A stretch of 64,000 nt of DNA from a virus: the IMG/VR virus record IMGVR_UViG_3300007754_000004, positions 1 to 64,000 of that record, one strand, 5' to 3'. Shown here one piece after another: positions 16,108 to 54,300 of the stretch. The translations under genes and the position numbers were made by a program. The notes below the pieces were generated by a model. It saw only the letters and a program-made list of their open reading frames with translations, made no database searches and was not told where the DNA came from. The stretch's first letter is position 1; the number at the start of each line of letters is the position of its first letter.

Positions 16108-19100
16108 CGCTACCTCCAGCGCGAGCGTCTTCTACCAGCCCGTCAAAGACTTCCCGAAGCTCGTTGATCTCCTCGATAATCTCCTCGTTCTCCTCTTCTT
16201 CGTCCCCCTCCCCTTTGATCCTCTTCCCGAGGATAGCTTCGACCAGCTTGAGCTTCTTCCGACAGGTCCCCAGAGTCCGCTCATCCACGGTCCCCCGTGC
16301 AATCAGGTGGATCGCATAGACCATGTCATGCAAGATCCCGATCCGAATCATCCGACCGAGAATCTGCAAGTAAATCCCAGCCGACCAGGGCGTGTCCAGA
16401 AAGACGATCGCCTTCGCTGCCTGGAGATTGATGCTATCGGAACCCGCCTTGGTAATCCAGACGATATTCACCCCGGAATCGTGAGCCTGGAAGGCGTCCA
16501 TCGCAGCCTGTCGAGCCGCGATGGTGTTCTCATCTCCGGTCACCCGGACTGACTTGACCTTGAGCTTCTTCTCCAGCCAGGGCTTCCCGAAGTTCACCAT
16601 CTCCTTGAATCGGGTGTAGATGATGACCTTCTGACCTTCCAACTCCCCGCCCGGAGCCAGGAGGTCAGCCAACACGTCCAGCTTCTCAGACGTCTCCTCG
16701 TCGAAGCCGATGAGGCAGGGGTGATTCACAATCTCCTGGCAGTAGGTGATCGCGGTGAGATGCGTGGTCTCTCTCAGCTCACCGTCTCCAACCTCCAGCA
16801 ACCCCTCCAACGCCTCCGCGTATTTAGCCGCCTGGAAGGAGGTGAGCCCGTGGCGGATTTCTTTGATCTGAAGCGGCGGGAGATCCTGCGCTACCTGGAA
16901 CTTCGCCCTTCCCAGGTGGAAGGGGTCGATCTTGGCCTTGAACCGAGCGATATCCTTCGGCCGATACCCTCGGATAACCGGGACCTTCCTGCCTCGACCG
17001 ATCGGCTGCATCTGGACGATGCAGTAGTCGTTCATAAAGGCGTTCCGGCTGTGGGTAAACAACCCAGGGACCAGCACCTTCATGATCCCAAACCCTTCCA
17101 TCAGGTTGTTCTGAATCAGCGTCGCTGTCATTCCCCAGACGCGGTTTGCCCTCTCCACCCCCCCGAGGTGCCTCATGATCTGGTGAATCTGAGACGACGG
17201 ATTCTTGAACGCCTGACAGTTTGACACCAGGGTGCCGTTGGCAAAGAAATTGTGGTTACCTTCGACCTCCAAGTCATAGACATATCGGTCTTTCTTGGGG
17301 TCAGATGGAACCCAAGTTCCGGTCTCTGTGACCCAATCCAGAATTGTTCTTTGCTGGGGACGGGTGTCAAAGTCGGAAGCCCTGGCACAAGTCTTTTCAG
17401 GAAACTTGTACATGACTCCAGGAAACCCACATGGAAGCAGGTTCAGGAACACTGATGTTGCTTGGTCATTGAGATAAAGGAGGAGGTGCCCTCTCTTAGA
17501 CACCTTGATTTGTGCCTTGACCCCCCACTTCCACCACAACCACCCAGCCAACAGCTCAACCTCGCCCCTGTCAAACCCACTTGTATGGAGTGTGACTCGG
17601 CGGGTCCTACCGTCTTTGCAAACGTGCTCATTCAGGGAGCCGTCATCGGCATACCACACAGCCAAACCAAGAGGCCCAACATGATTTAGCCAAGAGGCTG
17701 TGATCCTCTTACCACCTTGCCAAACGCGGTTCTGCACCGCCCAAGAAGTGACAGCCTCATTGGTTTGGAGCTTGAATCGAGCATAACCCTTCGGCTGTCC
17801 GTCTGTTCTAGGGAAGCCGCCGTTGGCTGATGTGTCTACCTCCGACACCCCCAGAGACTTCAAGATTTCTCGCTTGAAAATCAGGTAGTCCTTCTGGACC
17901 TCAGAATGGCCGAAGGCCACTCCGACCCGGACGTTGTTTGGATAGGCTAGACTGGAGTCCCCCAACAAAGCCCCGAAAATGACTTGCCATTGATCCTCAG
18001 AAGGGACATTTGAGCAGAGGTGTTGTACCTTGGAGCCTTCTTTGAGACGACTCGCCAGAACCTTTCCTCCCTCGGGGGTATAGAACTTGTGGGTGCTGGT
18101 GACACGAAGCCGTCCCCCGAACCGAAAACCGAGATGGAGTAGGTTTCTTCTCCGGCCCCTTTGGAAGGGAACCCGATGCCAATCAACAACTCTCTTCGGC
18201 TCGACCTCTCCTGTTTCTGGGTTCCAAGAAAGAACCTCAACAGGTAATTTCTGAGAGACAATCTTCCCGATTAACTCGGTACTACCGTCCGCTAGGAGGA
18301 CGGGGGTGTGGTACTGGAAGCACTCATCTGCGATGAGGATGTAGTCTTGCCACCCCTGCATCTGCCGGAAGTCCCGCCGGACAGACCCGTAGCCCATAAC
18401 CAGGACCGGATAGCGATCCTTCTCCTGCCAAGCCTTATATGCCTTCTTCCTCTTCACGGGGGTCCCCGCGGAGACGACCGGATCGACCACCCGGGTGAAA
18501 TTCTTAAAAGCGAGAGCCCACTGAGTGACAGCGGACTTGTTGCAGATAATGATCACTTTGCGAGTGGGATCCTCGATTTCCCAGAGGAAGCAGAGGGCCG
18601 CGATCACCTCTAAGGTGTTGTGGTTGACTAAGCCGTTACCCACGAAGCAGTGGCGGGGGTCATCCACCTCAATGTCCACAACCTCCTTGAACCCGGTTTT
18701 GATGGATTCGATGGGGTCGTAGAAAAACCTCCGTGATAGAAGCTTTTCGATGCCCTTATAGGCAGGGTGGTCCTTAGCCACCCCCACCTCGTAGGCCACC
18801 TCCAGCATCCACTCCAGAAACCCGTAGGTAGGGTTCCTGCGCCTAGCCCGGACGTGGGTGAGCGTGTTGTAGAAGGAGGACCCCCATCGAGTGCTAATCG
18901 AGAACCCATGCTTCTTGCAGCCGACAAGAATCTCCGACCGCAACAGCTCGACAGCACCCCAAGCGAACGGGACAATATCGTGGTTGGGGTTGGACTTGTT
19001 CGGGATGGCTCCCGCCAAACTACTCTTCTTACGAGAGGAGATGAAACCCACCTCGGCCTCGAAAATCCGGGCGTCCTCCCCGAACATTGTGAGCCGCCAG

Positions 19101-20179
19101 TAGGTGTGGTCGCGACCCTGGACCATCTTGGGGGAACGATTGGAGACGATTCCCAGGCGCAAGAGGAGGAGTTGAACCTCTCGAAGAAGCCTCTCAGAGG
19201 CGGAGCTGATCTCCACACCACCAGAAACAACGGACCCCTCTCCCTCAAACAGACCTCGGAGGAACGCTACCTGTGAATCCCGGGTCCCGATCATGACGGG
19301 GTCAGGAACGCGCTTGTCAGCGGGCAAGCCGTAGTCCACCCCCATCCCCTCCAGATACTTGCGGAGGTAGACGCTATCGATCCGCATCTCTTTCTGGTCG
19401 GACTCCTTGCCCCATCCGAACTGCTCCGCCAGGAGCCCCTGAATGTCTCGATGAACCGCTGGATTCTTCTCGGGACACTGCGAGATAGTGAACACGTAGG
19501 GGTGATTCACCCAGGCTTCCCCCACGATGTATCCGAGCAAACGGGCTAGGCTCGGGTTGAGCTGCGTAGGGACAGAATACACCTTGGCGTTAGGGGCCAC
19601 GGTGGGGAGCCGGAGCGGGGGCTCCTCGTCGGGGAACTGCGTAGGAGTCCTGTCCACGCAGAGGTAGTCCCCGACTTCCAGTTCTCCTGTCTTGATGAAC
19701 TGCTCTCCCGTGATCCCCCTCACGAACAGAGGGTGGACCAGTGAGCCCTCAACCTCGAATCCGTAGCGGCTCCGCACCCTCCGGGTCGGCTTGTTCCCGC
19801 AGTAGTAGAAGCTCTTGACCAGGACCATGTCGGACCCGATCCGAACCTGAACCCCAGAGCCCTCCAGGGAGGCGAAGGAGTCGGGGTCCATAGGACCCGG
19901 CTGGAGATCCCCGATGGGGACCAGCCCCCTATTGGTGTCCAGCAGGGTGTCTTTCGTGACGCACTTACCCAAGCCCGTGTCGTCCCCCACCAGGAACCTC
20001 TTCATGGAGAGGAGATGGACGACCATCTGGGCCTGATAGTAGCGGAGGGAGAAAGGCTTCTCGGTCCCGTCTAGTGCCTTGTACGAGGGCACCATCAGCG
20101 ACGAGGCCCGGAGAACCAAGTCCTCTTTCTCCCGGACAGCTTTCAGCTTCTCATAAGTGGCAGCCAGTACGGGATCCAT
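16100..20179 (-). CDS. SNF2-family helicase containing two inteins (predicted spliced product ~542 aa)
   Basis: LRYYQ, GDDTGLGK|T, IADE|CQ, MTATLIQNN, SINLQAA, QILGRMIRIG; start set at ATG 20179 with a GAGGAGG SD. Confidence 0.92.
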   Translation of the reverse strand: MDPVLAATYEKLKAVREKEDLVLRASSLMVPSYKALDGTEKPFSLRYYQAQMVVHLLSMKRFLVGDDTGLGKCVTKDTLLDTNRGLVPIGDLQPGPMDPDSFASLEGSGVQVRIGSDMVLVKSFYYCGNKPTRRVRSRYGFEVEGSLVHPLFVRGITGEQFIKTGELEVGDYLCVDRTPTQFPDEEPPLRLPTVAPNAKVYSVPTQLNPSLARLLGYIVGEAWVNHPYVFTISQCPEKNPAVHRDIQGLLAEQFGWGKESDQKEMRIDSVYLRKYLEGMGVDYGLPADKRVPDPVMIGTRDSQVAFLRGLFEGEGSVVSGGVEISSASERLLREVQLLLLRLGIVSNRSPKMVQGRDHTYWRLTMFGEDARIFEAEVGFISSRKKSSLAGAIPNKSNPNHDIVPFAWGAVELLRSEILVGCKKHGFSISTRWGSSFYNTLTHVRARRRNPTYGFLEWMLEVAYEVGVAKDHPAYKGIEKLLSRRFFYDPIESIKTGFKEVVDIEVDDPRHCFVGNGLVNHNTLEVIAALCFLWEIEDPTRKVIIICNKSAVTQWALAFKNFTRVVDPVVSAGTPVKRKKAYKAWQEKDRYPVLVMGYGSVRRDFRQMQGWQDYILIADECFQYHTPVLLADGSTELIGKIVSQKLPVEVLSWNPETGEVEPKRVVDWHRVPFQRGRRRNLLHLGFRFGGRLRVTSTHKFYTPEGGKVLASRLKEGSKVQHLCSNVPSEDQWQVIFGALLGDSSLAYPNNVRVGVAFGHSEVQKDYLIFKREILKSLGVSEVDTSANGGFPRTDGQPKGYARFKLQTNEAVTSWAVQNRVWQGGKRITASWLNHVGPLGLAVWYADDGSLNEHVCKDGRTRRVTLHTSGFDRGEVELLAGWLWWKWGVKAQIKVSKRGHLLLYLNDQATSVFLNLLPCGFPGVMYKFPEKTCARASDFDTRPQQRTILDWVTETGTWVPSDPKKDRYVYDLEVEGNHNFFANGTLVSNCQAFKNPSSQIHQIMRHLGGVERANRVWGMTATLIQNNLMEGFGIMKVLVPGLFTHSRNAFMNDYCIVQMQPIGRGRKVPVIRGYRPKDIARFKAKIDPFHLGRAKFQVAQDLPPLQIKEIRHGLTSFQAAKYAEALEGLLEVGDGELRETTHLTAITYCQEIVNHPCLIGFDEETSEKLDVLADLLAPGGELEGQKVIIYTRFKEMVNFGKPWLEKKLKVKSVRVTGDENTIAARQAAMDAFQAHDSGVNIVWITKAGSDSINLQAAKAIVFLDTPWSAGIYLQILGRMIRIGILHDMVYAIHLIARGTVDERTLGTCRKKLKLVEAILGKRIKGEGDEEEENEEIIEEINELREVFDGLVEDARAGGSDG
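17219..18322 (-). mobile_element. intein 2 (368 aa) with LAGLIDADG endonuclease, inserted in Walker B (DE|CQ)
   Basis: CFQYHT... to ...YDLEVEGNHNFFANGTLVSN|C; GALLGDSS and LAVWYADDGS motifs. Confidence 0.93.
18617..19963 (-). mobile_element. intein 1 (449 aa) with LAGLIDADG endonuclease, inserted in Walker A
   Basis: CVTKDT... to ...NGLVNHN|T; LLGYIVGEA and FLRGLFEGEG motifs. Confidence 0.93.
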
Positions 20180-20245
20180 AAGCCTCCTCGGGACCCCTCC
20201 CTCTACCACACCGGGAGGCTTCTTAGCCCCCCGACTGCGTCAACC

Positions 20246-33752: not shown

Positions 33753-33779
33753 TATACGAACGAGGTCCCCATTATTGCC
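33753..33779 (-). promoter_or_regulatory. ECF-like promoter motif GGCAAT-N15-CGTATA
   Basis: Motif copy. Confidence 0.6.
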
Positions 33780-35187
33780 GGCTCTTGTGGAGGATCATGT
33801 ACACCGTATTGATCCGAGTGCCTGATTCAAGGAAAGACTCAGGGGGGAGATCGGTGAAGAGATGCCCCCACCGGGACTTCTGACTCTTCGCCCAGGCCCG
33901 GAACCGCTTGTGCTTCGCGGTGGTGCCCAGGTCCGCGGAGATAGGCAGCACCGCGACCAGAGTGCCCCCCGGAGCCAGGAAGTCAAAGGCGTGGGTGACG
34001 TGCTCCATCCAGTGAGTCCCGTAGAACGGGGGGTTCATCACCACATGGGTGTAGATCGGATTGGCGGGGAGGTTCAGGAAGTTCGCCGGAATCACGGTGA
34101 GGCGAGGATTGTTGATCCCCTCCAGGGCAGAGACGCGGTCAGGATGAATCTCCACCGCGTCCACCTGACCGGCACCCTGACTCAGAAGATGGCGGACGAT
34201 ATGACCCGTTCCAGCGGACGGCTCCAACACCCGGGAGCCTTCGGAAAAGCGAACCCGATCGAGGATCTTCCCCACGACCGGGCTCGGAGTCGGGTAGAAG
34301 CTGAGATTCTTTGCGGGGAGGCCCGCCTTGGTCTTGAGGCTGTCCGCCGTGTCCCCACGAGGAGCCGCGTCCGGGAGAACCTCCCCGTAGTAGTCCGCCA
34401 GGACTTGATTGGCCTTCTCGACCAGATCATCCCGCCGGAACCAGAGGTGTGCGTTCCCATTCTTGAAACACCGCACGCGGAAATAGGGAGTCTCCGCGTA
34501 GGACTGTCGGGGGTTGTAGCCCCGGCCCCGGGTTTCCTCGATCGCCTTGGTCAGGGCACCGGGCTCCGGCTTCTTGCCGTCCAAGACAGCGAAGACACGC
34601 TCGATATCCGCCATCGTGTCCCGCATCCCGGAGTGGTAATTCCACGACCCCCACGAGTCGAACACGTTGGTCAGAATGATCCGGGTCCCGAGCTTGAACC
34701 CGTCGTGAGACTTGAACCTCCGATCCAAGTGCGTGAAAGCTCTGGCGAGCCCACGCTGAAAGATGAGGTTGGCGTCTGAGAGCAGGCTCTCAAGAATCCC
34801 CCGAACGTTGTCCACCGTGACCTCAGGCACGTCCCCACAGAGATCCTTCTCCAGGTCTTCCTTCGCCTTCCGGTCCATCAGGGTCCCCATCCCTGTCAAG
34901 ACGACGAGGTTCTTCCAGACACGGGCGTCCACGTACTTACGCCACACGTCCAGGGACGCCCCCGGATCGAACTGCTGGAAGAGGCGACGATAGGCCCCAT
35001 CCTCAGAGCGGTCGCGGAGGGCAAAGACGGCAGCCCCGTGAGCCTCCCGGGCGATCACTGCTGCCTCATCCACCATGTCATGACCCGCCTGGATCATCTC
35101 CACAGCTCGCCGCATCCTCTCAATGGAGGCATCGCGGGCAGCCACGATCCGAACGATCGTAGTCCGGGGGATAAGCTCCTGATCCAC
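33772..35187 (-). CDS. DUF4942-like domain plus adenine methyltransferase (471 aa)
   Basis: YFRVRCFKNGNAHLWFRRDDLVEKAN; FYPTP, VLEPSAGTG, VMNPPF, LAPGGTLVAVLP. Confidence 0.85.
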   Translation of the reverse strand: MDQELIPRTTIVRIVAARDASIERMRRAVEMIQAGHDMVDEAAVIAREAHGAAVFALRDRSEDGAYRRLFQQFDPGASLDVWRKYVDARVWKNLVVLTGMGTLMDRKAKEDLEKDLCGDVPEVTVDNVRGILESLLSDANLIFQRGLARAFTHLDRRFKSHDGFKLGTRIILTNVFDSWGSWNYHSGMRDTMADIERVFAVLDGKKPEPGALTKAIEETRGRGYNPRQSYAETPYFRVRCFKNGNAHLWFRRDDLVEKANQVLADYYGEVLPDAAPRGDTADSLKTKAGLPAKNLSFYPTPSPVVGKILDRVRFSEGSRVLEPSAGTGHIVRHLLSQGAGQVDAVEIHPDRVSALEGINNPRLTVIPANFLNLPANPIYTHVVMNPPFYGTHWMEHVTHAFDFLAPGGTLVAVLPISADLGTTAKHKRFRAWAKSQKSRWGHLFTDLPPESFLESGTRINTVYMILHKSRQ

Positions 35188-45800: not shown

Positions 45801-47084
45801 GTAAGGACCGGGGCCGAAGAAGTACCGACCCGTCGCCGGGTCCACTTCAGGCAACCTCTTGAGCTGGTACTCGTCCGCGGCAGAGGCGTCCACGATCTCG
45901 TAGTAGCCAAGAAGGGCCGCCTCATCTCCGTGAGACAGGGCCGCCCCGTCTACCAGATTGACACCCGTGACCCGGACAACCTTGCCGGCGTCTCCCGCAA
46001 CGACAGGGCTCCCCGCAATATCCTGAATCCGCCAGATCCCAGGACCGTCAGCAGGGGTGCCGCCGCCGTATTCCACCACACCTTGCATGGTCCTGCGGGC
46101 TACAGGGATGGGCGTCGCCGCCTGTCCGCCGTAAGAAGCCACCTCACCTGCCGTTGAGGTAGCCTCAAACCCTCCGTCCTCCCACACCTTGTAAGGAGGG
46201 TAGAAGCCGGAAGAAGCCGTGTTCTCCGGCGGCACCACGACAAAGATCCGCTCCCGCCCCACTGCGGGGCCGGAACCCGGCATACCAACCAGCCTCGTAA
46301 CCTGAGGCTGGAAGAGCATGATGGAACGGAGGGCCGGGTTCAAAGGAATCGTGAAGACGCTGGACAACCTCTTTTCAGAGGCCAGCGTGATCACCCCGCC
46401 CGTGTAGGAGGACACCCGGAAGATTTCAAACCGAGCGGACCCCACATACTTGCTCAGCGGAGTCAGCCCATTGACCCCAGCCGCCAGGGTGCCGTCCACG
46501 GATCCCGTGTCCGAGATCACCAGATAGAGGCCCCCGTTGTAGGCAGAGATCCCCGTCCCGGAGAGGTTGTAGGCTTCTGCGAGATCGGCGGCAGACCGCG
46601 AGCCGCTAGGCCCGTCCGCCATCGTCAGAGTGTCATTGTTCCCTACAGATCCGACCGTCCACTGCCAGTCGCAGAAGGGAGAGGCCTTCGTGGGTCCAAT
46701 GACATGGAAAGCGATCGGGTGACCGAGCAGCGAGGGGCCCTTTGGCCCGAACCGATGGGAGCCGTGGTCATAGGGCCTGAAGTTAATCTCAGGGTGGCCC
46801 GCGAGACCAAGTCGAGAGTCGATGGTCTGAACGTCGTGGGGGAACGCCGTCGCTGTCGATCCGCTCTTGTCCGCATTGCTGGAGTCGGGCTCCTGAGTCG
46901 CCTGGAAGCTCCGCTCAAGAGAACCAGCCCAGGAACCAGCGAGACCCGAGACGACCTCACTGCTCTGAATCTGAGCAACGCGGCTCAGATGCTCCTGCCA
47001 AGCCTCGCGAACGAAATCCGTGGCAGCCCTGTTCTCCAGAGCCTTGCGTAGGCGGATCAGGGTTTCGTCGTCACGAGTCGCCAT
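36846..47084 (-). CDS. giant putative virion/tail-associated protein (3412 aa)
   Basis: 10.2-kb uninterrupted ORF, G/S/T/D/P-rich, no recognisable enzyme motif. Confidence 0.75.
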   Translation of the reverse strand: MATRDDETLIRLRKALENRAATDFVREAWQEHLSRVAQIQSSEVVSGLAGSWAGSLERSFQATQEPDSSNADKSGSTATAFPHDVQTIDSRLGLAGHPEINFRPYDHGSHRFGPKGPSLLGHPIAFHVIGPTKASPFCDWQWTVGSVGNNDTLTMADGPSGSRSAADLAEAYNLSGTGISAYNGGLYLVISDTGSVDGTLAAGVNGLTPLSKYVGSARFEIFRVSSYTGGVITLASEKRLSSVFTIPLNPALRSIMLFQPQVTRLVGMPGSGPAVGRERIFVVVPPENTASSGFYPPYKVWEDGGFEATSTAGEVASYGGQAATPIPVARRTMQGVVEYGGGTPADGPGIWRIQDIAGSPVVAGDAGKVVRVTGVNLVDGAALSHGDEAALLGYYEIVDASAADEYQLKRLPEVDPATGRYFFGPGPYFDTTGHTGAAKVEVTFTLHDAISELFTGDFDLDRVEAARLGNLIDPEWVRRTTKIDASGKVPSGGSPGRADRSIFDTESGTGQADPGSLLDLGFRMVLFPAKDDGGGDAVPDFSRPIYTRDVVIDPSVTTDSQFIEVDYAGGLVYLSHAPPASSGGAIVPAGIIGSGGNNPRGEVVLFAACVPYSRESGQTGVGLRVTGGDLESATLGYSSATQRDVFGGRVHATLTAHAAGSNPHTMTLTGTNSANWPETGSAEVLYEGGSPLGLSQGRIFWTGLGNVTGTTFDLTGVATDAAIPFTVPATVVLRKGDGDLRLDTTYGAKWRSGTWRIAYGDLTAQPDGSLLITPTAVQGPAAELRAGFPLGGSSEVARLFLDTKSNRWTTTAPSWASDSEDNEVGLEVARGRLYASLSLDFAAGTLSSTRFLNRVEQVSSVNATIPDSASPPNQFDLVVDEASSVFQTALPTNVAGLCAVVEGSTIASAENASWTPLVAGVRLVVDAKIFGRAGGKLITAREYAEAPANPLNWFAYTAVGSDSPTDIQTAINSHYSGLTPASSPSTTEGSGATERLLVSGRQVRVLPAQYYLESQVINALNPFTTSVASGFALSVFSADPKNDNGSKWATLVLNYDTTITSTDPDEVAAFLNQALYETTYAGYVGDKLDDAGFYETPAGVSASPNAWIGGAAAGSIAAPTGAPVGERQFLFIGPGDARHPTGSETVCLICGGWGSGDASASAQDFYNVMIEVGRVNAEDSSGDIAGLLAGDFDPDPYEIPTCGLFFGDDANDTPSPPVAGDFPSEAAANSGATDLGFSQNGVRPLGHLVGSHRVKSTASSPLRARIEILRGHGSDWFAGPRRAPVFQVGTDLEPGSTPAQAWPDKGYEYGYMGRWVWGAEDLTVIDRTTGSAAGLADIWVSYGLSPHGEMGFSCLLTATSQVGYPSFLIEVTATGTEFDSPSVAPNSIAAGDLVTGIRDGTTEAFEGRVLAWDTSTNTGELLVVSRGTYETTDGHLLPQGFQPTSIGAFSPTANTASTDLEVSIIPRPGFNQFASAFRSLAKHANTALTNTSDEYGQGLDGGSADTTATSSFSGVLVGGGRVDLISLIGPSALPGVSFTTPVVGEGLAASPLQVTTTFLESGVFSTSVALGNLDWPAPDSGGVYDQGLATGESTSESLQRLPKGSYAGGAHVGGVAGLRVSGDAQIWLTNPRPLASTQATAYVRRMLAVKGSVGWNLMEVGPAATGGYDNGMAHAISGFGAARRAGSAAETMFIQEATVSLGLTRADLHAFLMASGQLDWPGTQDDLIRGADAIGALRAAWWVGNPDMPVLMPFLEGKYLQLEDTSGGYTSDNNNGVWRIVGAPVITMSGLSAELESKFPALTSLATGQTGSTANIRDMEDGTLPASAVVSVLQLRVERYAVPPANDANVAATLESFVPESVRANQLQGHPWGIYADIQATEKVYVADVVDPGGSPTGAPQGIHGMSLDPSWLGREDLPMEMIPVFRDGPGTDRWPLPGAARLLGIRSSEDSRGRVTSHAWFSWSGTPGTTTTHHVYARAVVHATARADGLDDLSSASTWGEFAMDRAGRVSFVGHTQRLGPGVLLDGGLGLVMASAFRATPRPVEMETLAGFSVVGQASAWPLTSHFRSRSHGAPSVPSTFNTVEFFEDATVVGPHGSLQFEDARAAQGLPFRLKENAVAASSFASPARLLIARTSPDLGGTDEPNIHITPNDSLFPAPWSGIRFRSPGTVRYERPFRVIDAKGGHQGMNALLGAPSSGIRGIEVPTFGECLLLPKGPPTMAGSGWADFVTDTAVGSTPTDTPLYEFRANKTTDFGISPEMCFSSAERTKDGDRTEGPASHEAGPGVLSQAYRHSRSRSVTGDYPNSGTAEQMRILDGMVIEDVSNGCFFTAGHLGREFAYTNVNTLSGELGNGTRGPINGSITINHGGVTNELQVVYDIGPYVDVSEDPEADTVNGTSNGFGDRIDTVTVVVAASDQEIEQVRRPLVGHRYRITPNVEFVPVLGPRGVGGGLIPPWTDATDPTTSIDSADAIFYSTRYSFKPPGGDFGAGDVGRMIYICGTYNYKYTGWWVVIDVLDNYEVQPAIVNEFDGTGANAALTTSVAVVRKLRREGDAKKHSTTFDGALPLVARAPLLEAASNFRTNQSLMSGTPGDFGNMSLWITDNTGASFYTAGPTILAPGSADPDGIVTLLNSTAAFNGLSTSFGVQFIVWSSNGASLEVTYDLSLLTATQAAQVTGNRAALRVEWLSTSTGHTMPTAGNARDPMSIGFHSYPGHASQLDRGFGDRNNALPIVDNSQHFSRSAAAGLRWVFSAPLTEEHSGSYVHLKRPAKYRFNTLLASQSEAGASLTTKAWVGGNPYPGDDIDEQVDIFRINRCPTTADLILGGDCEEYYTELIKVGRVVSGTNGDSGRGRPLLYSPLGVYGFWPDTVSGEIPSRGHNYVMQYAIQPVARERIVTISPNNMKSSTWVVPGATTSGDVDVGTGPKVMTNTTSGLGFDLSTPWVLMDRSMVSGRTGTLLWNADTGRNYVWTPGPAWWQLWVPSPDNQRDAEEPMPTLRVDLTDAFTQAMQPGGGIASPFPGKQPKGARLLRLWVNFGVWGNNLPSRGEEATPGYVDTSGDPLAPYYMAFNLIVELPGSHAREFKSGISLEEHPYASGPGISPFGGRAPTVMYNHDDNTGTHKAGGAVVVPLYVNREAGDIMPNVMERWVDAGPSNTPGAESDWRTGDPEYGFGCSSESSANDLHGSISYLGNAHNPIVWGSQDFTASVWGARDDSLVLASPLPRSSLTSGGIRSAFTSGLWPDMDDFSGTTPPAVCPQALTGIVVAHGGENPKAPDINAGSAINNVPTTCPHAFTIALTPVGDDFDATDSASIQKFGRRLTPGSFRPKDRPFKVGNWLDYILERYGIAAPSGSMLPPGARVYLEITAGNGDVTNSTGAGCWVGSVKAAFEVETADGTAYVENVNHLGNDR

Positions 47085-47129
47085 GCAATTAGCTCCCGGT
47101 AGCCTGAGGCACCTCTACCGAAGGGCCGG

Positions 47130-47145
47130 CTATAGCCCTCATATT
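47130..47145 (-). promoter_or_regulatory. putative late promoter variant AATA-N6-CTATAG
   Basis: Upstream of the 3412-aa gene. Confidence 0.45.
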
Positions 47146-47149
47146 GAGA

Positions 47150-47176
47150 GGTAATTTCCAGGGGCCAGATCGTATG
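47150..47176 (+). promoter_or_regulatory. ECF-like promoter variant GGTAAT-N15-CGTATG
   Basis: Upstream of the plus-strand gene at 47199. Confidence 0.55.
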
Positions 47177-47198
47177 ACCCAGCAACCGGAGTAGATAA

Positions 47199-47627
47199 AT
47201 GAGTCTCTTCCTTTCCCTGGTCGTCGGGGCTACCCTGCTCGCCATCCTCCTCGCGGGCTCCCTAAAGCAGAAGCCACGGAAGCCGCCCCCCCTCGCCCTG
47301 GTAGGACCAGCCCCGTACATCGGGCCGGCGACCCACACCCACTCCTCAATGGGGACTCCCTACGGGAAGGAGCTGCCCTGGCAGGAAGCCACCCCGGACG
47401 GACACCTCGCGTGGGCTCACGTCCTGCTGGGCTCCGCTCCGCTGGATGAAGGAGCGGGCTACTTCCACAACGTCGGCCACGAAGCTGTCGTGCTGAAGAC
47501 GGATCTCTCGCCGGAGCTGGTGGCAGCGTCCATCGCAACCACCTCTGGGCTTCAGGGGCAGGTGCGACGCAGCGGATCCTACCCGAACACCTACCGCTGG
47601 ATCAGCTACGAGGTCTCCTCGACGGAG
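47199..47627 (+). pseudogene. 5' part of an interrupted membrane-anchored protein gene (intact form 163 aa when joined to 50561-50623)
   Basis: GGAG SD and N-terminal TM; the frame continues in the second repeat copy as ...EVSSTE-ARRRDFGTYTRFSIEVRRLT-stop. Confidence 0.7.
47453..47627 (+). repeat. 175-bp direct repeat, copy 1
   Basis: Matches 50386-50560 with one mismatch seen (offset 2933). Confidence 0.95.
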
Positions 47628-47666
47628 TCGGACGACTGCTCCATGGAGTGTGTATCCGAAGGTCTC

Positions 47667-48770
47667 TTACCAACCGAGCGAGAGTTGACCTCCAATGCCC
47701 TTTCGCACCACTTTTCCGGTTCTCCGCCGCTCCAAGGCCACCAGCACCGCTTCCCCAAGCCGCCGAGCCAAGAGGGGGGGCACGGCATTTCCCACTTGGT
47801 GGGCAGTTGGTACAGTCTTGCCAACAAAGATGAAATCGTCGGGGAAGCTCTGAAGACGAGCGGCCTCACGCATGGTGATGTTCCGGTCGGCCACCGGGTG
47901 GGCGAAACGGCCGCGGGTAAAACTATTACACTTGGTGGTGATGGTTCCCGCAGGCTTATCCCAGTGGAGACGACCGTAAACGCCTCGGTGGCCAGCCTTT
48001 TCCACGCTGACCCGGTGACATGGAAGACGGAGTTCCTCGGGGATATCTGCTCGGCCGCCGCCCATTGGGACGTGGGAAATACGCCGGCGATTCTGGGCCG
48101 AGATGTTGTCTCGGTTGTGATTGGGAATTCTGGATGCGGCCTCCGGACGGGCAAACGGACACGGAAGGTCGCCTATAGCGTCACGAACTGTAGACCACGA
48201 CTCCGAATTGTGGGTCGGTTCCGGCCAAATGAAAGCCTTGGGGCGATCGACTCGTTCGCCGACCAAAAACGCACGTTTTCGATGTTGAGGCACACCAAAA
48301 TCAGCGGCATTCAATGTGTTCACATCGGTTCGGTAACCGAGAGTTCTTGCAAATTCAATCGCTTGAGACAATTGCGCCTTGCCCCTCCTGTTGCGGATGG
48401 CGGCGACATTCTCCATGATGAAGAACTCAGGCTCCATCTCACCAACTAACCGAATGAAATCGAGTACGAGTTGGTTTCGATCGTCTTCGTTGCTTCCCCG
48501 TCGCTGTCGGGAAAAACCCTGACATGGAGGGCCGCCGACAACAAGAGCGGGGTCTCCTCGATACAAATTAGCCTTGGCGAGCAGCATGTCCCCATGTAGC
48601 GTCGAGGCATCAGCCTCCAACACATGGTCGCCGAGGTTGTGGCGGTGGGTTCTGACGGCCTCCGTGTTCCAGTCGAAGGCGGCGCCTAAGCGGAAGCCGG
48701 CTTGGAGCAAGCCAAAAGCGAACCCGCCGGCTCCGGCGAAGCAGTCGATAGCAACGGGAAGGTCGCTCAC
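47667..48770 (-). CDS. DNA (cytosine-5) methyltransferase (367 aa)
   Basis: FAGAGG, GGPPCQGFS, MENV, PQHRKRAF, REAARLQSFP, QVGNAVPP. Confidence 0.95.
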   Translation of the reverse strand: MSDLPVAIDCFAGAGGFAFGLLQAGFRLGAAFDWNTEAVRTHRHNLGDHVLEADASTLHGDMLLAKANLYRGDPALVVGGPPCQGFSRQRRGSNEDDRNQLVLDFIRLVGEMEPEFFIMENVAAIRNRRGKAQLSQAIEFARTLGYRTDVNTLNAADFGVPQHRKRAFLVGERVDRPKAFIWPEPTHNSESWSTVRDAIGDLPCPFARPEAASRIPNHNRDNISAQNRRRISHVPMGGGRADIPEELRLPCHRVSVEKAGHRGVYGRLHWDKPAGTITTKCNSFTRGRFAHPVADRNITMREAARLQSFPDDFIFVGKTVPTAHQVGNAVPPLLARRLGEAVLVALERRRTGKVVRKGIGGQLSLGW

Positions 48771-50068
48771 TTGAGCCTCTTGGTGTGCTTGCGACCAGGG
48801 ATGCTGCTCGAGAACGAGTTGCTGGTCGGCTCCAATACATCACCGTCCGTGTTCATCTCGACGACCTCGTTCGGATCGCGGGACAACTCCGTCAAGATGT
48901 GAGCAGCCAGATGAGCGGCGAATTGCGGCGGCACGGCGTTGCCAATCTGCTGAAACCTGTCGTCAAATGGTCCCTCAAACATCCAAGAGGAGGGGAAGGC
49001 TTGCAACAGGGCCGCTTCTCGGATGGACAGGCCACGGTCTTGTTCCGGATGAACGTACCGACCGCTGGCCGGATTGCGGGAGTAGCCGGTGATCGTGTTG
49101 GCAGGTCGATCCCAGAACATGCGCCCGTAAACATCACGGTAACCATCCACTCTGTCGAGGCACTTTGGACCTACGCCGGGTGGTCTTGAGCCGCCGTCCT
49201 TGGGGATTTGTCGAATCGTAGCGACGGTGCTGGCTCGGTGTCGGGTACAGGCATGCATCGGATCGTCGGGTGACGGGGAGCGGGGCCCGATGGGAGGCAG
49301 GTGCCCAATGGCGGAGCGTACGGTGCGGTAGTCAGCGCTGTCGGTCAGGAAGGGGTCAGGCATTCGGAATGGGCGTGGAGAGGCCAACACCAGGGCTCGG
49401 AATCGGGCCTGAGGTACACCAAAACCAGCAAGGTTGTGGATGCGGGCCCGCACAATGTAGTCGGGATCGAGCAATTTCTTCAGGGACTGAAAACGGTCTA
49501 AGTACTTATGAGCCAGCAACTCCGGCACATTTTCCATGACTATGAAGTCAGGGTTGAGACGGCGTGCGATGCGAGCAAAGGCGTCTACGAGGTGGTTGCG
49601 TTCGTCAGATTCCCGGCGAAGGCGCTTTCCGTGAGCGGAGAAGCCCTGACACGGGGGCCCCCCGATGAGAACCTTGGGGGCCCCCGAAACGAGGCCGAGG
49701 CTACTCAAGAAGTTGTCGATGTTGTCATCGGATGCCGCGACAACGGCCAGATCTTCTCGTCGCACCCGTACCGGCAGGTTGCGGTCGAACGTGTCGGCCG
49801 CGTGGGGGTCGAGGTCTGCCGCACCCGCCAGTCGGAAACTGTTGATAGAGCGCCCGATAGCTTCAAAGCCGGCAGCAAGCCCACCACAACCGCAGAAGAG
49901 GTCAATGACTTCGATCGGGCCGGAGGCCGGGGGGGCTTGAGGATCGAAGGCGGCGACAGCCTGCTCCGCTATCGCGCGGAGTGGATACCGAGCCCCTTCT
50001 CCGCCTTGGCCCTCTCGACTTGTGGCCAACGGTTTCGGCTGAATCTGGCTGGACGGGACAATTCTCAT
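48767..50068 (-). CDS. DNA (cytosine-5) methyltransferase (~433 aa)
   Basis: FCGCGG, GGPPCQGFS, MENV, PQARFR, QIGNAVPP; start set at the TGATG overlap with the regulator. Confidence 0.95.
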   Translation of the reverse strand: MRIVPSSQIQPKPLATSREGQGGEGARYPLRAIAEQAVAAFDPQAPPASGPIEVIDLFCGCGGLAAGFEAIGRSINSFRLAGAADLDPHAADTFDRNLPVRVRREDLAVVAASDDNIDNFLSSLGLVSGAPKVLIGGPPCQGFSAHGKRLRRESDERNHLVDAFARIARRLNPDFIVMENVPELLAHKYLDRFQSLKKLLDPDYIVRARIHNLAGFGVPQARFRALVLASPRPFRMPDPFLTDSADYRTVRSAIGHLPPIGPRSPSPDDPMHACTRHRASTVATIRQIPKDGGSRPPGVGPKCLDRVDGYRDVYGRMFWDRPANTITGYSRNPASGRYVHPEQDRGLSIREAALLQAFPSSWMFEGPFDDRFQQIGNAVPPQFAAHLAAHILTELSRDPNEVVEMNTDGDVLEPTSNSFSSSIPGRKHTKRLK

Positions 50069-50277
50069 CAGGGCTGCTTCCGGTTGACGGGGTCGAAGAG
50101 GGGGCGTTGTTCGGGGAAGCCGACCGCGTCCAGGTGTTGCTTGATCAGGTGATCTGCAAACGTGCTTTTCTTGCGGCATGTCTGCTCGCAATAGGCTTGG
50201 TAGCGCTCATACTCAACAAGGCTGAGGCAGACGGTGATGCGTCGAGTGGTCTGGTGCTGTTTGCTCTCCGCAGGCAT
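50068..50277 (-). CDS. small ribbon-helix-helix-like regulator (69 aa)
   Basis: RRITVCLSLVEYERYQAYCEQTCRKKSTFADHLIKQHL; GAGGAG SD; first gene of the MTase operon. Confidence 0.65.
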   Translation of the reverse strand: MPAESKQHQTTRRITVCLSLVEYERYQAYCEQTCRKKSTFADHLIKQHLDAVGFPEQRPLFDPVNRKQP

Positions 50278-50298
50278 GGGTCGCTCCTCTCTCCCGGC

Positions 50299-50328
50299 AG
50301 TATAACAAGCCTGCACAAGATTGCGCAA
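50299..50328 (-). promoter_or_regulatory. sigma70-like promoter of the MTase cassette (TTGCGC-N18-TATACT, extended -10)
   Basis: TGnTATACT about 20 nt upstream of the regulator start. Confidence 0.5.
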
Positions 50329-50385
50329 AACATCTCAAAAGTGCGCACTCTTACGTCATAGTGCGCTATTCGCCGAAGGAAGCGA

Positions 50386-50560
50386 AGCGGGCTACTTCCA
50401 CAACGTCGGCCACGAAGCTGTCGTGCTGAAGACGGATCTCTCGCCGGAGCTGGTGGCAGCGTCCATCGCAACCACCTCTGGGCTTCAGGGGCAGGTGCGA
50501 CACAGCGGATCCTACCCGAACACCTACCGCTGGATCAGCTACGAGGTCTCCTCGACGGAG
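50386..50560 (+). repeat. 175-bp direct repeat, copy 2
   Basis: See copy 1. Confidence 0.95.
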
Positions 50561-50597
50561 GCCCGACGCCGGGACTTCGGAACCTACACCCGATTCT

Positions 50598-51290
50598 CTA
50601 TCGAAGTCCGGCGCCTGACATAGTCACCTCGATAGCGACGTAGGTGTAGCGGTCATCCTGAGTAGGGACGCTCCCCGTAGTCACCACTAGCGTGTGGTCT
50701 CCCCGATCCCACTCGCGGTAGACTCGGACATATCCCCACTCGACTGCGTAGAAGAAGGGGACTTGGCTGCTCTCCCAATCCCGACAACGGAAGTTGGTGA
50801 AGTAGCCCTGAGCGGAGGGGTTGCTCCAATCGCAGTGCTTCCCGGGCGTCCGGGAAGGGGTCGGGAGGGAGCGCATCCTTCCCCGGCCCTCCTTCAACCA
50901 GAGTGCCTCATCCCAGACGAAGGACTCTTCGTACTCCCCCTTGAGGGACGCCGTGAGAGCCTCGAAATAAGCCCACTCTTCGTCGGTGGATCGCTCAGGG
51001 CTGTAGAAGAGCTGGCTGTCGTTCCCAGGGTACAACGGCTCCGGGAGGAACAACCACTGAACCAGTGTCCCCCCTTCGTCGAACCTGTACTCCGTCTCCC
51101 CCGCAACCCCCATCCGAGTCTCCTTGTACCGGAGAATACCGGACTGGACCAGGAGAGGCGGGAGGCCCTGATGGGCGTGGCGGACCAGATGCTCGGAGGA
51201 GCCCAGCGGGGGCCCCATCATGTCAAAGGTCACGGGGCCCTTGTCACAAGCCAGGGTCAGCAGGCAGAAAATCGTCGGGGGAAGTCTCAT
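50598..51290 (-). CDS. putative lipoprotein (230 aa)
   Basis: MRLPPTIFCLLTLA|C lipobox-like signal. Confidence 0.65.
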   Translation of the reverse strand: MRLPPTIFCLLTLACDKGPVTFDMMGPPLGSSEHLVRHAHQGLPPLLVQSGILRYKETRMGVAGETEYRFDEGGTLVQWLFLPEPLYPGNDSQLFYSPERSTDEEWAYFEALTASLKGEYEESFVWDEALWLKEGRGRMRSLPTPSRTPGKHCDWSNPSAQGYFTNFRCRDWESSQVPFFYAVEWGYVRVYREWDRGDHTLVVTTGSVPTQDDRYTYVAIEVTMSGAGLR

Positions 51291-51315
51291 CTCATTGCTC
51301 AGTAGTTCCCTTCCC

Positions 51316-51342
51316 TATACGAACCCGCCCAGGAAACTTTCC
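51316..51342 (-). promoter_or_regulatory. ECF-like promoter motif GGAAAG-N15-CGTATA
   Basis: Motif copy. Confidence 0.65.
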
Positions 51343-51387
51343 GAAGAAAGATTCCAAGAAACCTGTGGGCCCGCGTATATAGGGGGT

Positions 51388-54300
51388 TTACGAGCGGATA
51401 ATTTCCAAACCCACGAGGCCGCGGAGGTTATCTACGGTGCCGCTGCTACCCCCCTGCTCCAGGTTGAGGGCCTTCCCTCCGGCGGTATCCTTGATGATAA
51501 CCTTCACGAGGACCGGGACGGTCCCTTCAGCGGAGACGAAGAGAGTCGCCGCTGGACCTACGTGGACCCGCACCTGACACTCCACAACGCCCGAGACAGC
51601 GTCCACATCATCAAACGTGGCAGGTCCCGTGACCTGACAGCCGGCTCCATCTTGGAAGGAATCCTGCTTGCTAGGGCCGGCACCGTCGCCCCGCCCAAGG
51701 TCCATCCAGGTCGTCCGTCCAGGGACCTTGACCAGGATAGCAATCTCCGGAGCCCCAGGCCCGGGAGGATCGTAAGCGAAATCGTTGAGGAGAAGGCCCT
51801 TCACCTTGAGAGTGAATAGGGCTGAACCTTCGGCTGCAACCGGGGTACCCGAATTCTTGAACCCTACATCGAAGGCTCGGATGTAGATCCGGTCTCCAGT
51901 CTCCGAGCTGTAATCCGGCTGGTCTGCGGCGATATCAGAATCCCCTGAAGGACCGGAGGGACGCATCCCGGAGCTGTAGTCGTGCTGGGGGAAAATCAAC
52001 ACGCCTGCGCTGGGGAAAGCAGACGCCACCCCGTCCGAGAGGGGCGGGTTCCGATCCGGGAGACCCGCGACCTGAAGCTCTCCCGCAGGGATGGAGCTGA
52101 GATGGTTCCCAAGCTGCACCCAGGAACTCGTATCGTAGCCCGAGACCGCCGTAGTCCCCGCTCGTACAGGGACGTCAATCGCAGAAGAGGCCCCGCCGAG
52201 CCCTGGCCCCACCAGGAGAGCCTGATCTCCCGCCGACACCCCCGGGAAGGTAGCATCATAGCGGTAGACCTCATCAAGGAACCGCTCCTCTACGTCCTTC
52301 TGAGCCGTCTGAGTACCCGCCGCCGCAGTGGTCGCCGTCGCGGGGTTGGCATACACGGACTCATCGGTGCTGTGGAAGAGCAGGGTGTCCCCGTTGGTCT
52401 CCAGAATCGTTGTTCCATACACGGCCGTCGCCGCTGCGCTGTTCCCCAGGGGACGACGGATAAACATCCTGACCCGAGCATCCCTGGAGAAGCTGGGAGC
52501 CGAATCGTCCCCCGTGGGCTGGAAGCCTGTACCGGCGATCGTAAAATCAGCCTTGTCCGTGAGACCAGGAGGGGCGACCAGGGAGAAAGGACCGTCAGTG
52601 TCCCCGAGATGAGTCATGTTCATCTCAATCCGGCCTGCCTTGGACGTGCCTGTACCAGCGGGCACGGAAAAGGTCGTCCCCTGAGCGAACGGGCCCACCC
52701 AGAGGAAACCGACGTCAGGGCCTTCCAAGCCAGAAGAAGCGGGGGTCCCGTTCCCCACTCGATAGCTGCTATCCCAGACCCCCGTCGCCTCCATCGGGAG
52801 CGACGTGATCTTCCAGGGGTTGAGCTGGGTGGACGGGATGAAGTAGCTGACACCGCTCAACACCTGGACGTTCACCGGAGAACCCGGGTCAAAGGTGTAG
52901 ACCGTGTTGACAAACACGGGAGCCGCCGTGCCGTCATCATCCTCGATATGAGCACCGCGGACGATGCGGTAGCTCCCCGCCGGATCGAAGGGCGAGGAAC
53001 CCGTGGAGAGGTTGGCCGGAAGCTCCACGTTGGTCCAATTGACGATATTGGCAGACCATAGGGCACTGTCCGCAGGGGAGGTGCCGTCCACCACGAGGGC
53101 CTCAAAAGCGGCCTCCGTCTTGAAGTGGAGGAGCAGGAAGGAGCCGATATCCCGGGCGTCGCCGCCAGCTACCGTGGGGAACTCGAACCGCTGACGGAAA
53201 CGAGCCAATTGGAAGGTCCAATAGGTCGTCTCAAAATCGGTGAAATCACCCGCCTGAGTGAGATCCGTCCCTGCATTGAGGGCGATTGTCGGCTTGCTGA
53301 AATAGCGAGTCCGCTCTGCCGTCGGTGTGAATCGCAACCCCGTCGAGGTGCTGTAGTCGTTCAGGTAGGGCAACCTGTATCGGAAGAAGTTGTTGTCATC
53401 CCGGTTGTCCGCCGCTCCCGCGAGTGTGGGAGCCGACGCGGAGGTAGTTCCCCCGAGGATATCGAAGCCCAGACGGGTCATGCCGACCGTCGTGTCCGCC
53501 GCCGGGGGGGAGACGCCACCCGTGGAAGAGACTCCCGTGTGCAACTCAGAGAGATCAAACTGACCTGTTGCTCGCCCAGGGAAGGTATAGGGATCAAAGC
53601 CGTCTGAAGTCGAGTCTCCCAGCGTGAACATCCCGCCCGGGTCACCGTCGCATCCAGAAACCTTCCCCGATCCAAGGGAGAGAGCGGCGATGCACCGAAG
53701 GTTCTGAGCCTGACCGGTGAAATCCGCAAGGGTTCCTCCGGCTGGGAAGTACAGGAGAGCCAACACGCCTCGATCAGCGGGGTAAACCGCGCCGCTGACT
53801 ACAGCGTAGCTGTTCCCTGATCCGGGCTTCGGCATCACCCGAGCGGTCTCGATGACCGCACTCCCCCGAGTGAACCCGCCCTGATAAGTGTCCCCTGAAC
53901 CCCCGCCCGTATAAGTCCCGTCCGCGACGTTGAAGGTGCTGTCCGTTGAGGGGTCATTCCCCGGCGTCGTGAAGCCGTCAGCGTACTTCGGGAGGACGTG
54001 GAAATAGGGGTAGATATCCGTGTCAGCGTTGGGGGCTGTTATGTCCGGACATGTCACCACACCATTAGCGACGAGGCCGGCGTCGTTCAGCTTCAGGACT
54101 CCCCAATCCGGGACACCAGAGAACGTCAGGTAGCTGAGATCCTTCCCCAGACCAGGAGGTCGGGGCGGAACCAGAGCAGCCAGCTCGTCAAAACCCTCCT
54201 GCGTGCTGTCTCCGTCAAAGGAGCCCGACTCGTCTTCCAGAGCGATGGCTGACGCCGCGTGAGCGGCTGTCGGGTCATCAACATGCCCGCTGACGCTGGA

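Follow-up and report, generated by a model that had tools for sequence, protein, structure and literature searches.

How does a pair of DNA methyltransferase genes, together with what looks like their own regulator, come to lie inside a putative membrane-protein gene of a phage, what would the phage gain from them, and can the event be undone? These questions are raised by a double C5-methyltransferase cassette located within positions 47,199 to 50,623 of a 64,000-nt stretch of viral DNA (IMG/VR record IMGVR_UViG_3300007754_000004, positions 1 to 64,000; "the window" here means this whole stretch). These 64 kb open a linear virus record of 84,412 nt, whose completeness was put at about 16% by CheckV and whose source samples are marine and seawater metagenomes; the virus is a large marine phage. 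The interrupted gene is called gene X here and the two methylase genes M1 and M2. The explanation that this study finds probable is that a foreign methylase operon was recently inserted into gene X with a 175-bp duplication of the target, that the methylase pair likely serves in counter-defence, and that the insert can be deleted by recombination between the duplicated segments. A first-pass annotation of the same DNA had described the locus as a possible reversible switch, and the results given below depart from it on the matter of reversibility, among others.

The anatomy of the locus is given in Table 1. Comparison of the two copies of the direct repeat agreed with the length and single mismatch claimed for it: 174 of the 175 positions were identical, and the only difference (47569 G versus 50502 A) changes an Arg to a His. 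The copies are spaced 2,933 nt apart, they are the only direct repeats anywhere in the window with a length of at least 40 nt and a separation of up to 15 kb, and the repeated segment occurs just twice in the 84-kb record. The insert between the copies is 2,758 bp long, is oriented on the minus strand, and is wholly filled by a gene for a putative ribbon-helix-helix (RHH) protein, M2, M1 and a leader. It holds no transposase, integrase, recombinase or nuclease gene and has no terminal inverted repeats, which bears out the statement that neither a recombinase nor a restriction endonuclease is found between the repeats. When positions 47199-47627 were joined to 50561-50623, the result was an open frame of 163 codons.

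Table 1. Coordinates of the features of the cassette, of gene X and of the adjoining gene in the window.
Feature	Position	Strand	Details
Phage-type promoter of gene X	47150..47176	+	GGTAAT-N14-TCGTATG, then GGAG and ATG at 47199
Gene X, codons 1-143	47199..47627	+	N-terminal hydrophobic anchor, Pro-rich linker, larger part of the conserved domain
Left copy of the 175-nt target duplication	47453..47627		Codons 86-143 of gene X
Foreign tail past the M1 stop	47628..47666	-	39 nt
M1, C5 DNA methyltransferase, 367 aa	47667..48770	-	PF00145 E 5e-60; GTG start overlaps M2 stop (GTGA)
M2, C5 DNA methyltransferase, 433 aa	48767..50068	-	PF00145 E 1e-47; ATG overlaps stop of the RHH gene (TGATG)
Putative ribbon-helix-helix protein, 69 aa	50068..50277	-	Likely start ATG 50277, preceded by AGGAG
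Foreign leader	50278..50385	-	Three GCGCA boxes, extended -10, AGGAG 50288-50284
Right copy of the 175-nt target duplication	50386..50560		
Native 3' end of gene X	50561..50623	+	Codons 144-163 and stop; encodes the family motif F(S/T)IEVR
230-aa neighbour gene	50598..51322	-	No relatives detected; phage-type promoter TCGTATA 51316-51322

The proposed history depends on gene X being a real gene in its restored form, and three independent lines of evidence agree that it is. The first is its promoter. The TCGTATR motif was found 17 times in the window where 4.2 occurrences were expected, and the layout seen at gene X, with a GGTAA box upstream and a Shine-Dalgarno sequence and ATG downstream, is common to about a dozen other phage genes. 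The second is codon usage, as the gene X frame had a codon score of 0.226 and a third-position GC content (GC3) of 0.82, compared with scores of 0.12-0.38 and GC3 of 0.68-0.78 for phage genes, and the other frames over the same DNA either contained stops or had scores that were negative or near zero (at most 0.07, in the unique 5' part). The third is homology. A HMMER search of 1.84 billion representative sequences returned five homologues (P0123-P0127) of 164-172 aa, with E values from 1e-28 to 2e-12, and the restored 163-aa protein can be aligned with them over its whole length, which takes in the C-terminal motif whose codons lie only to the right of the insert. The restored 20-residue tail has 4-9 of its 20 residues in common with P0123-P0129 whereas the sequence obtained by reading through on the left has only 1-3; past codon 143 the left frame runs into the antisense strand of M1 and creates a spurious open reading frame (ORF) of 416 aa. 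In the homologues the repeated segment is present once, so the uninterrupted gene is taken to be ancestral and the 175 bp to be a target duplication. Because promoter, codon usage and homologues agree, the evidence indicates that gene X is a genuine gene whose single-copy form came first. The earlier claims that the insertion interrupts a plus-strand gene, and that deletion of 2933 bp would restore it in frame, are both upheld by these comparisons. The description of the product as a membrane protein also fits, in that residues 1-19 have a Kyte-Doolittle mean of 2.47 over 19 residues and are followed by a basic cluster, as would be expected of a membrane anchor.

The insert differs from the DNA around it in several respects. 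Its three genes had codon scores of -0.03, -0.03 and -0.07 with GC3 of 0.61-0.70, and the phage-type promoter motif does not occur in it. It contains 11 GCGC sites over its 2.76 kb, a density of 3.99 per kb, compared with 0.56 per kb elsewhere (Poisson P 8e-7), and the only CTCGAG of the contig falls within it. The atypical codons, the density of GCGC and the single mismatch in 175 nt of repeat together indicate that the insert is foreign and was acquired recently, and the same three observations sustain the recent capture that had been proposed for it.

The assignment of the two larger genes as C5 methyltransferases was straightforward. Both matched PF00145 over the full length, with bit scores of 204 and 163 against a curated cut-off of 22. 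The M1 motifs FAGAGG, GGPPCQGFS, ENV, QHRKR and GNAVPP were conserved in a multiple alignment (A1), in which the catalytic PC, ENV, QxRxR and GNAV motifs were invariant; these were also visible in the pairwise alignment of M1 with M2. The two proteins are 37% identical and their genes are co-oriented and overlap by 4 nt. In the listed ORF (48767-50191, minus strand) M2 opens at a TTG at 50191, but the more likely start is an ATG at 50068 that shares bases with the stop of the gene upstream. Since starts and stops overlap (TGATG, GTGA), the RHH gene, M2 and M1 are predicted to be translationally coupled. The claim of two coupled C5 methyltransferases is therefore retained, given the strong PF00145 matches and the overlap of the M2 stop with the M1 GTG.

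Two further features of the cassette, an RHH-like regulator and a sigma70-like promoter, had been proposed. The sequence-family matches of the 69-aa protein were weak, with E 0.14 to the Pfam family RHH_5 and, for the homologue in a related locus (L167), E 0.1 to RHH_9, both below the cut-offs; a profile search against the Protein Data Bank gave ParG at E 0.015 and SvtR at E 0.03. Matches to its predicted fold were consistent with the proposal. The AlphaFold2 model (pLDDT 72) has an extended segment followed by helices at residues 20-33 and 37-52, although the RHH strand is not formed in the model, which is of a monomer. The top Foldseek matches of this model were all RHH proteins (ParG, CopG, PutA, MazE, Arc, NikA and AmrZ), with root-mean-square deviations of 1.2-2.3 A over 40-43 columns and E values that were all above 0.1. 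These lines, each of them weak, agree with one another. Homologues of the protein lie directly upstream of M2 in three other loci (L167, L172 and L200). The protein is a likely autorepressor of the operon. In the leader, an extended -10 element (TGtTATACT, 50307-50299, minus strand) was read by eye and is followed by a Shine-Dalgarno sequence and the ATG, but a sigma-70 scan of 47000-51400 called no site; a sigma70-like cassette promoter is plausible. The three GCGCA boxes, which make up three of the 11 GCGC sites of the cassette, lie at 50366, 50346 and 50326 (within 50321-50366, minus strand), exactly 20 nt apart, and are placed upstream of the weak -35 region of the cassette promoter and overlapping it. 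They are candidate operators for the RHH protein.

The origin of the methylase pair was approached through related loci, which were collected by scans of genome and viral collections and then by tblastn. At least 14 loci were found with an M2-like gene immediately followed by an M1-like gene, which is the order seen in the window. M2 was 43-65% identical to the upstream member of these pairs and M1 was 44-65% identical to the downstream member, but identities across members were only 32-39%. This pattern of high same-position and low cross-position identity indicates two orthologous lineages kept in a fixed order, and such an arrangement fits one methylase for each strand of an asymmetric site. 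In nine of the 14 loci, an AAA_5/McrB-like gene and a gene for a McrC-like nuclease (PDDEXK_7/DUF2357 or PF10117) lie beside the pair, and McrB- and McrC-like genes were found beside orthologous pairs in L003, L004, L006, L007 and L166-L169. The L167 locus reads RHH-like gene (product 38% identical to that of the window), M2, M1, a gene for a 275-aa protein, AAA_5 and McrC-like, with the same overlapping stops and starts as in the window. The evidence indicates that the window pair is orthologous to M2-M1 pairs that sit in restriction systems, and the proposal that the cassette is the protective half of a restriction-modification (R-M) system is supported by such loci, L167 (RHH-M2-M1-McrB-like-McrC-like) among them. 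In L167 the next gene begins 52 nt after the M1 stop, and in the window the breakpoint of the capture appears to be the position at which the restriction genes (R1 or its N-terminal partner) start in the related loci.

The identity of the donor is a different matter. The first-pass annotation proposed capture from a host R-M system, and the direct donor may have been either a host or a phage. The best relatives of M1 in protein searches were 57-67% identical. Among the matches listed, the closest pair is that of L164, a viral contig encoding P0003, which is 65% identical for both genes and has no restriction genes within 6 kb downstream; in the tree the window pair groups with it (support 100) and falls among the McrBC-linked pairs. 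A high-GC viral contig (L172; 5980-7719 and 8713-10485) carries RHH-M2-M1 just upstream of a large terminase gene and is phage-like; its M1-like ORF, at 579 aa, is about 200 aa longer than its relatives. Orphan copies of the module appear, from these contigs, to circulate already in phages. Other searches did not find a closer source. A scan of genome contigs with alignment A1 found nothing closer than 48% among the matches listed, a scan of metagenome contigs with M1 alone (variable peptides) reached 45% at best, and M2 searched against phage and plasmid proteins gave nothing above 39%. No flanking long repeats were found at the other M2-M1 loci. A lactococcal plasmid hit (H52) was considered as a relative and was rejected, as it is a McrBC-like pair without methylases; likewise, an 85-aa ORF upstream of M2 in L164 was considered as a counterpart of the RHH gene and rejected as it does not encode an RHH protein.

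Four of the 14 loci, and in addition one metagenome locus (L083), have a protein of 905-1,093 aa beside the pair instead of the McrBC-like genes. These proteins (L008, L165, L170, L171 and L083) contain an N6_Mtase domain, with Type_ISP_C in all but L170, and the pairs linked to these Type ISP/IIG-like partners form a separate clade in the tree. The same C5-methylase pair module appears to be common to two quite different restriction partners.

The layout of the McrBC-linked loci recalls LlaJI, which is carried by the Lactococcus plasmid pNP40 (O'Driscoll et al. 2006, PMC1459862). LlaJI uses two C5 methylases for the asymmetric site GACGC/GCGTC, and its restriction proteins R1 and R2 resemble McrBC (PMC1459862). 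The background given by the first-pass annotation, that R-M genes can insert with long target duplications and that paired C5 methyltransferases can act on one asymmetric site, is found in the literature as stated (PMC2853133, PMC1459862). The window resembles LlaJI, and the related LlaI and BsuMI, in having two adjacent, co-oriented C5 methylase genes, a likeness of gene layout, and the full LlaJI arrangement of M2-M1 with a McrB-like AAA_5 GTPase and a McrC-like PD-(D/E)XK protein is that of the nine orthologous loci already described. It differs in two ways: R1 and R2 are missing from the window, and an RHH regulator precedes the pair, as it also does in L167, L172 and L200. LlaJI is not known to have a separate regulator gene, and M1.LlaJI reportedly contributes to control. 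In LlaJI-type systems, each of the two methylases modifies one strand of the asymmetric site, and DNA lacking the modification is cut by the McrB-like GTPase together with the McrC-like nuclease. Counts of the LlaJI site were uninformative as to the specificity of the cassette, because GACGC occurs in the phage exactly as often as expected (250 versus 250).

Other sites are far from their expected frequencies. GCGC was seen 57 times on the 84-kb contig where about 303 were expected; CAGCTG, GTCGAC, GAGCTC, CACGTG and the asymmetric GACATC are entirely missing, and CTCGAG (1), AGGCCT (1) and GTCCCA (2) are rare. This strong avoidance of palindromes by the phage points to restriction pressure from its hosts. 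At least four methylase genes are found on the contig alongside this site avoidance, those outside the cassette including a DUF4942/methyltransferase gene (33772-35187) and an N6_N4_Mtase gene (10398-11600). Apart from a role in counter-defence, M2 and M1 could also belong to a complete R-M system of the phage whose nuclease lies off the contig, among the roughly 84% of the genome not covered by it, or they could serve the phage's own ends, such as gene timing, packaging, self-marking against a phage-encoded nuclease or superinfection exclusion. The low completeness of the contig leaves ample room for a nuclease, many IMG/VR contigs carry a full M2-M1-R1-R2 set, and the phage has at least two other methylase genes. 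However, in every complete system found the restriction genes are directly beside M1, while here the foreign DNA ends 39 nt past M1; no homologue of R1 or R2 was found in the 84 kb; and the palindrome avoidance points to restriction by the host. A complete system or a use for the phage's own ends is therefore considered quite unlikely.

Insertion of R-M genes with long target duplication has been described in bacteria, with repeats of 46-423 bp, and it was suggested that such insertion relies on DNA breaks made by the R-M system itself (PMC2853133). The earliest examples concerned Type IIS systems, whose sites were asymmetric, and the repeats were proposed to allow amplification and release (PMC2853133). 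The criteria used to recognise them were repeats of more than 30 bp, an insert of less than 20 kb without mobility genes, homologues of both R and M, and a relative with an empty site (PMC2853133). The locus reported here has 175-nt repeats that are single at the target and a 2,758-bp insert without mobility genes. Like the cases of Nobusato et al. 2000 and Furuta, Abe & Kobayashi 2010, it is a short block without mobility genes that has duplicated one stretch of its target, the 175 bp lies within the published range, and the composition of the insert differs from that of the genome. Unlike them, the target is a phage rather than a bacterial chromosome, the insert holds a regulator and methylases but no R gene, and the empty state is known from protein homologues of the target gene only.

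Combining these observations, the following course of events is proposed. A 2,758-bp foreign operon would have inserted after codon 143 of the 163-aa gene X, duplicating 175 bp, and would have arrived with its own promoter, its candidate operator boxes, an RHH repressor and the coupled M2 and M1 genes in that order. The insertion itself may have been an illegitimate event of the long-target-duplication kind, for example by staggered breaks or template switching. Microhomology at the junctions is weak, consisting of GAAGGA, found within the cassette 11 nt from its end and again at the native left border, with TCGGA in common downstream. The source of the breaks would have to be outside the insert, and restriction of the phage DNA by a host is one speculative candidate. 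Once in place, M2 and M1 would most likely methylate the phage DNA and allow it to escape from host restriction of that specificity, and homologous recombination between the repeats could later remove the insert exactly and rebuild gene X.

An alternative to de novo insertion is a Campbell-type re-integration, in which a circle consisting of one repeat and the cassette, excised from a second genome of this or a related phage, entered by one homologous crossover. The cassette would in that case use the 175-bp repeat to pass between co-infecting genomes. Recombined once with an intact gene X, such a circle would yield exactly the structure observed, and the two repeats differ at only one base. 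Contigs from public runs bear on this alternative as well. At the mismatch position, the contig covering the 175-nt repeat had only A in run X1 and only G in run X4, and in run X5 the contig breaks there. The single-variant contigs are due either to the contig builder, by bubble popping, or to exchange that homogenises the copies, and under the latter they could count in favour of re-integration, as could depths that fit a mixture of filled and empty genomes. However, bubble popping may account for the single variants without any exchange, and re-integration only moves the origin of the structure back, since a first joining of the foreign DNA to gene X is still needed. It is given a slim chance as an explanation of this locus, and direct insertion with target duplication is preferred.

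As the first-pass annotation recognised, the whole structure could also be an assembly artefact, and this was examined with Logan contigs (k = 31) from four runs of two studies. The contig of the left flank stops 30 nt into the repeat, that of the right flank begins 30 nt before the repeat ends, and that of the cassette covers 47598-50415, which is 30 nt into each repeat copy; both ends of the cassette contig lead only to the repeat. The only loose contig ends were due to an unrelated contig matching a conserved methylase motif. Flank contigs were at full depth up to the repeat, and no other branch was reported. When the depth of the repeat was compared with the sum of flank and cassette, the values were 41.6 versus 42.2, 88.9 versus 84.0 and 10.9 versus 11.6, and cassette depth tracked phage depth over a sevenfold range (r = 0.9997). 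In run X6 a single contig spans the cassette, the right repeat copy and the right flank.

An artefact would take the form of an intact gene X in the phage and a cassette on another replicon, such as the host or a small circle, bearing the same 175 bp. It has some basis: the 175-nt repeat is longer than the k-mer of any assembler, so that the path through it rests on read pairs, the contig graph (flank-repeat-flank plus repeat-cassette) would also allow an intact phage plus a repeat-cassette circle, and the cassette is less deep than the flanks. However, the cassette contig leads only into the repeat in all four runs and both studies, and the X6 contig joins cassette, repeat and right flank. 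Since the repeat codes for phage protein and has the codon usage of the phage, a copy in the host is unlikely. A 2.9-kb circle without a replication gene would need to be kept at a near-constant ratio to the phage in order to follow its depth so closely. Finally, an intact 163-aa gene X is not on record among 15 billion proteins. An artefact is accordingly considered highly improbable, and the contig joints and depths in the four runs fit a real insertion.

The same depths bear on whether the insert leaves the genome. The ratio of cassette depth to flank depth was 0.83, 0.83, 0.68 and 0.61 in the four runs. The simplest reading, and one that is favoured here with some reserve, is that 17-39% of genomes have an empty site, in which case the natural population probably holds both filled and empty forms. 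Contigs at k = 31 cannot separate filled from empty sites, nor can they show a circle junction. By ordinary recombination between the repeats, exactly 2,933 bp would be lost and gene X restored. The excision suggested by the first-pass annotation is hinted at by the depth deficit only, and its call for empty-site relatives led to two relatives at about 40% protein identity (L244 and L245) that are without the whole surrounding island. Amplification, which had also been suggested, is not supported by these data: the cassette was never deeper than the flanks in any of the four runs, and tandem amplification is excluded as the main state. The term reversible switch was an overstatement. Within one genome the loss would be one-way, and regain would require recombination with a carrier phage on co-infection, so "switch" applies at most at the level of the population. 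A trade-off between methylation and the membrane protein is speculation.

Several points weigh against the interpretation preferred in this study. No genome or contig with an empty site was found, the deficit in cassette depth could be a coverage bias, and an intact 163-aa gene X is missing from the protein record. The R gene that is part of the published description of long target duplication is missing from the insert, and with no R1 or R2 homologue on a contig that is about 16% of the estimated genome, the partner nuclease could lie elsewhere in it. The Type ISP/IIG-like partners beside five of the related pairs make the partner system less than certain. The capture may have been from phage to phage and not from a host, since the closest pair is itself an orphan on a viral contig. 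Lastly, the 11 GCGC sites brought in by the cassette would be a cost in a genome that avoids GCGC, unless they are methylated or the present host does not cut them.

A more far-reaching idea is that the duplication keeps the methylase-only cassette as a presence/absence polymorphism, lost by recombination and regained from co-infecting genomes or circles, as a form of bet-hedging on hosts. This is considered unlikely, and so is the specific form in which hosts with LlaJI-like systems, against which 5-methylcytosine protects, would favour the filled state, and the empty one would be favoured in hosts where methyl-dependent nucleases (Type IV, McrBC-like) or a requirement for gene X make 5-methylcytosine or the broken gene costly. 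If the polymorphism is real, it would extend the "invade, amplify, release" life cycle that Kobayashi proposed for R-M systems to a viral element with M genes only.

Capture of methylases by phages has a precedent. The lactococcal phage phi50 reportedly took part of the LlaI methylase gene from the plasmid pTR2030, in work ascribed to Hill, Miller & Klaenhammer (1991). In both cases a phage gains the modification function of a type of restricting system without the nuclease. The phage of this study differs in having acquired a whole regulated operon with two methylases, which lies between long target duplications inside a phage gene, and in belonging to an uncultured marine population rather than being selected in the laboratory. 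A second comparison is with C proteins, which have a helix-turn-helix fold and in most cases regulate the nuclease gene of Type II R-M operons. As in C-protein operons, a small, putatively DNA-binding protein comes first, is translationally coupled to the genes that follow and is associated with repeated boxes over the promoter; by analogy, the regulator-first layout suggests delayed or self-limited expression. The putative window regulator differs from C proteins in that it would be of the ribbon-helix-helix type and would control methylases only.

Orphan methylases of phages as counter-restriction, the capture of LlaI/LlaJI-class methylases and long target duplication are each already known. 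What is new is their combination, in which the regulated, methylase-only half of a LlaJI-like system is found with a long target duplication in a phage gene, possibly as a polymorphism. The locus shows with unusual clarity how a phage in nature gains what is probably a counter-defence, as the promoter, regulator, codons and sites are still foreign. The interrupted gene can be reconstructed precisely and compared with homologues that are intact, and the relatives of the cassette reveal the type of system with its nucleases. That a long target duplication can place a methylase-only module in a virus weakens the idea that this mechanism needs a nuclease of the system's own. If the depth deficit does reflect empty sites, the same public samples would allow the frequency of gain and loss of such a module in nature to be measured directly.

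The position of the insertion within the phage genome is also of interest. Gene X, whose 3' end overlaps the convergent 230-aa gene by 26 nt, forms with that gene a lineage-specific island between genes for proteins of 1004 and 3412 aa. L244 and L245 lack the 4.3-kb stretch 47085-51387, which comprises the 230-aa ORF, gene X and the cassette, and the gap between the two large genes is about 65 nt in L244 (13168-13233) and about 245 nt in L245 (12970-13216). This suggests that 47085-51387 is an accessory-gene hotspot with nested insertions. Scans of IMG/VR for gene X, its family and the 230-aa neighbour found no loci, and a word-based search with gene X returned only its own fragment. The gene X family (P0123-P0127, P0129 and P0130) is small and unannotated; its members are of about 165 aa, one of them is encoded on a 180-kb contig, and common to them are an N-terminal anchor and the motifs PPYIGP, LDxGAGY(F/W)HNxGH, YRW and F(S/T)IEVRG.

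No close relative of the phage was found in phage, IMG/VR or metagenome collections, and the phage collection gave no DNA match; relatives at 40-50% protein identity are IMG/VR contigs of 78-289 kb. The genes of the window are almost all on the minus strand and encode very large proteins, a DnaB-like helicase, an SNF2 helicase with inteins and other methylases. The SNF2-type helicase gene (16100-20209, minus strand) is broken by intein/LAGLIDADG domains, with two LAGLIDADG matches and one Intein_splicing match.

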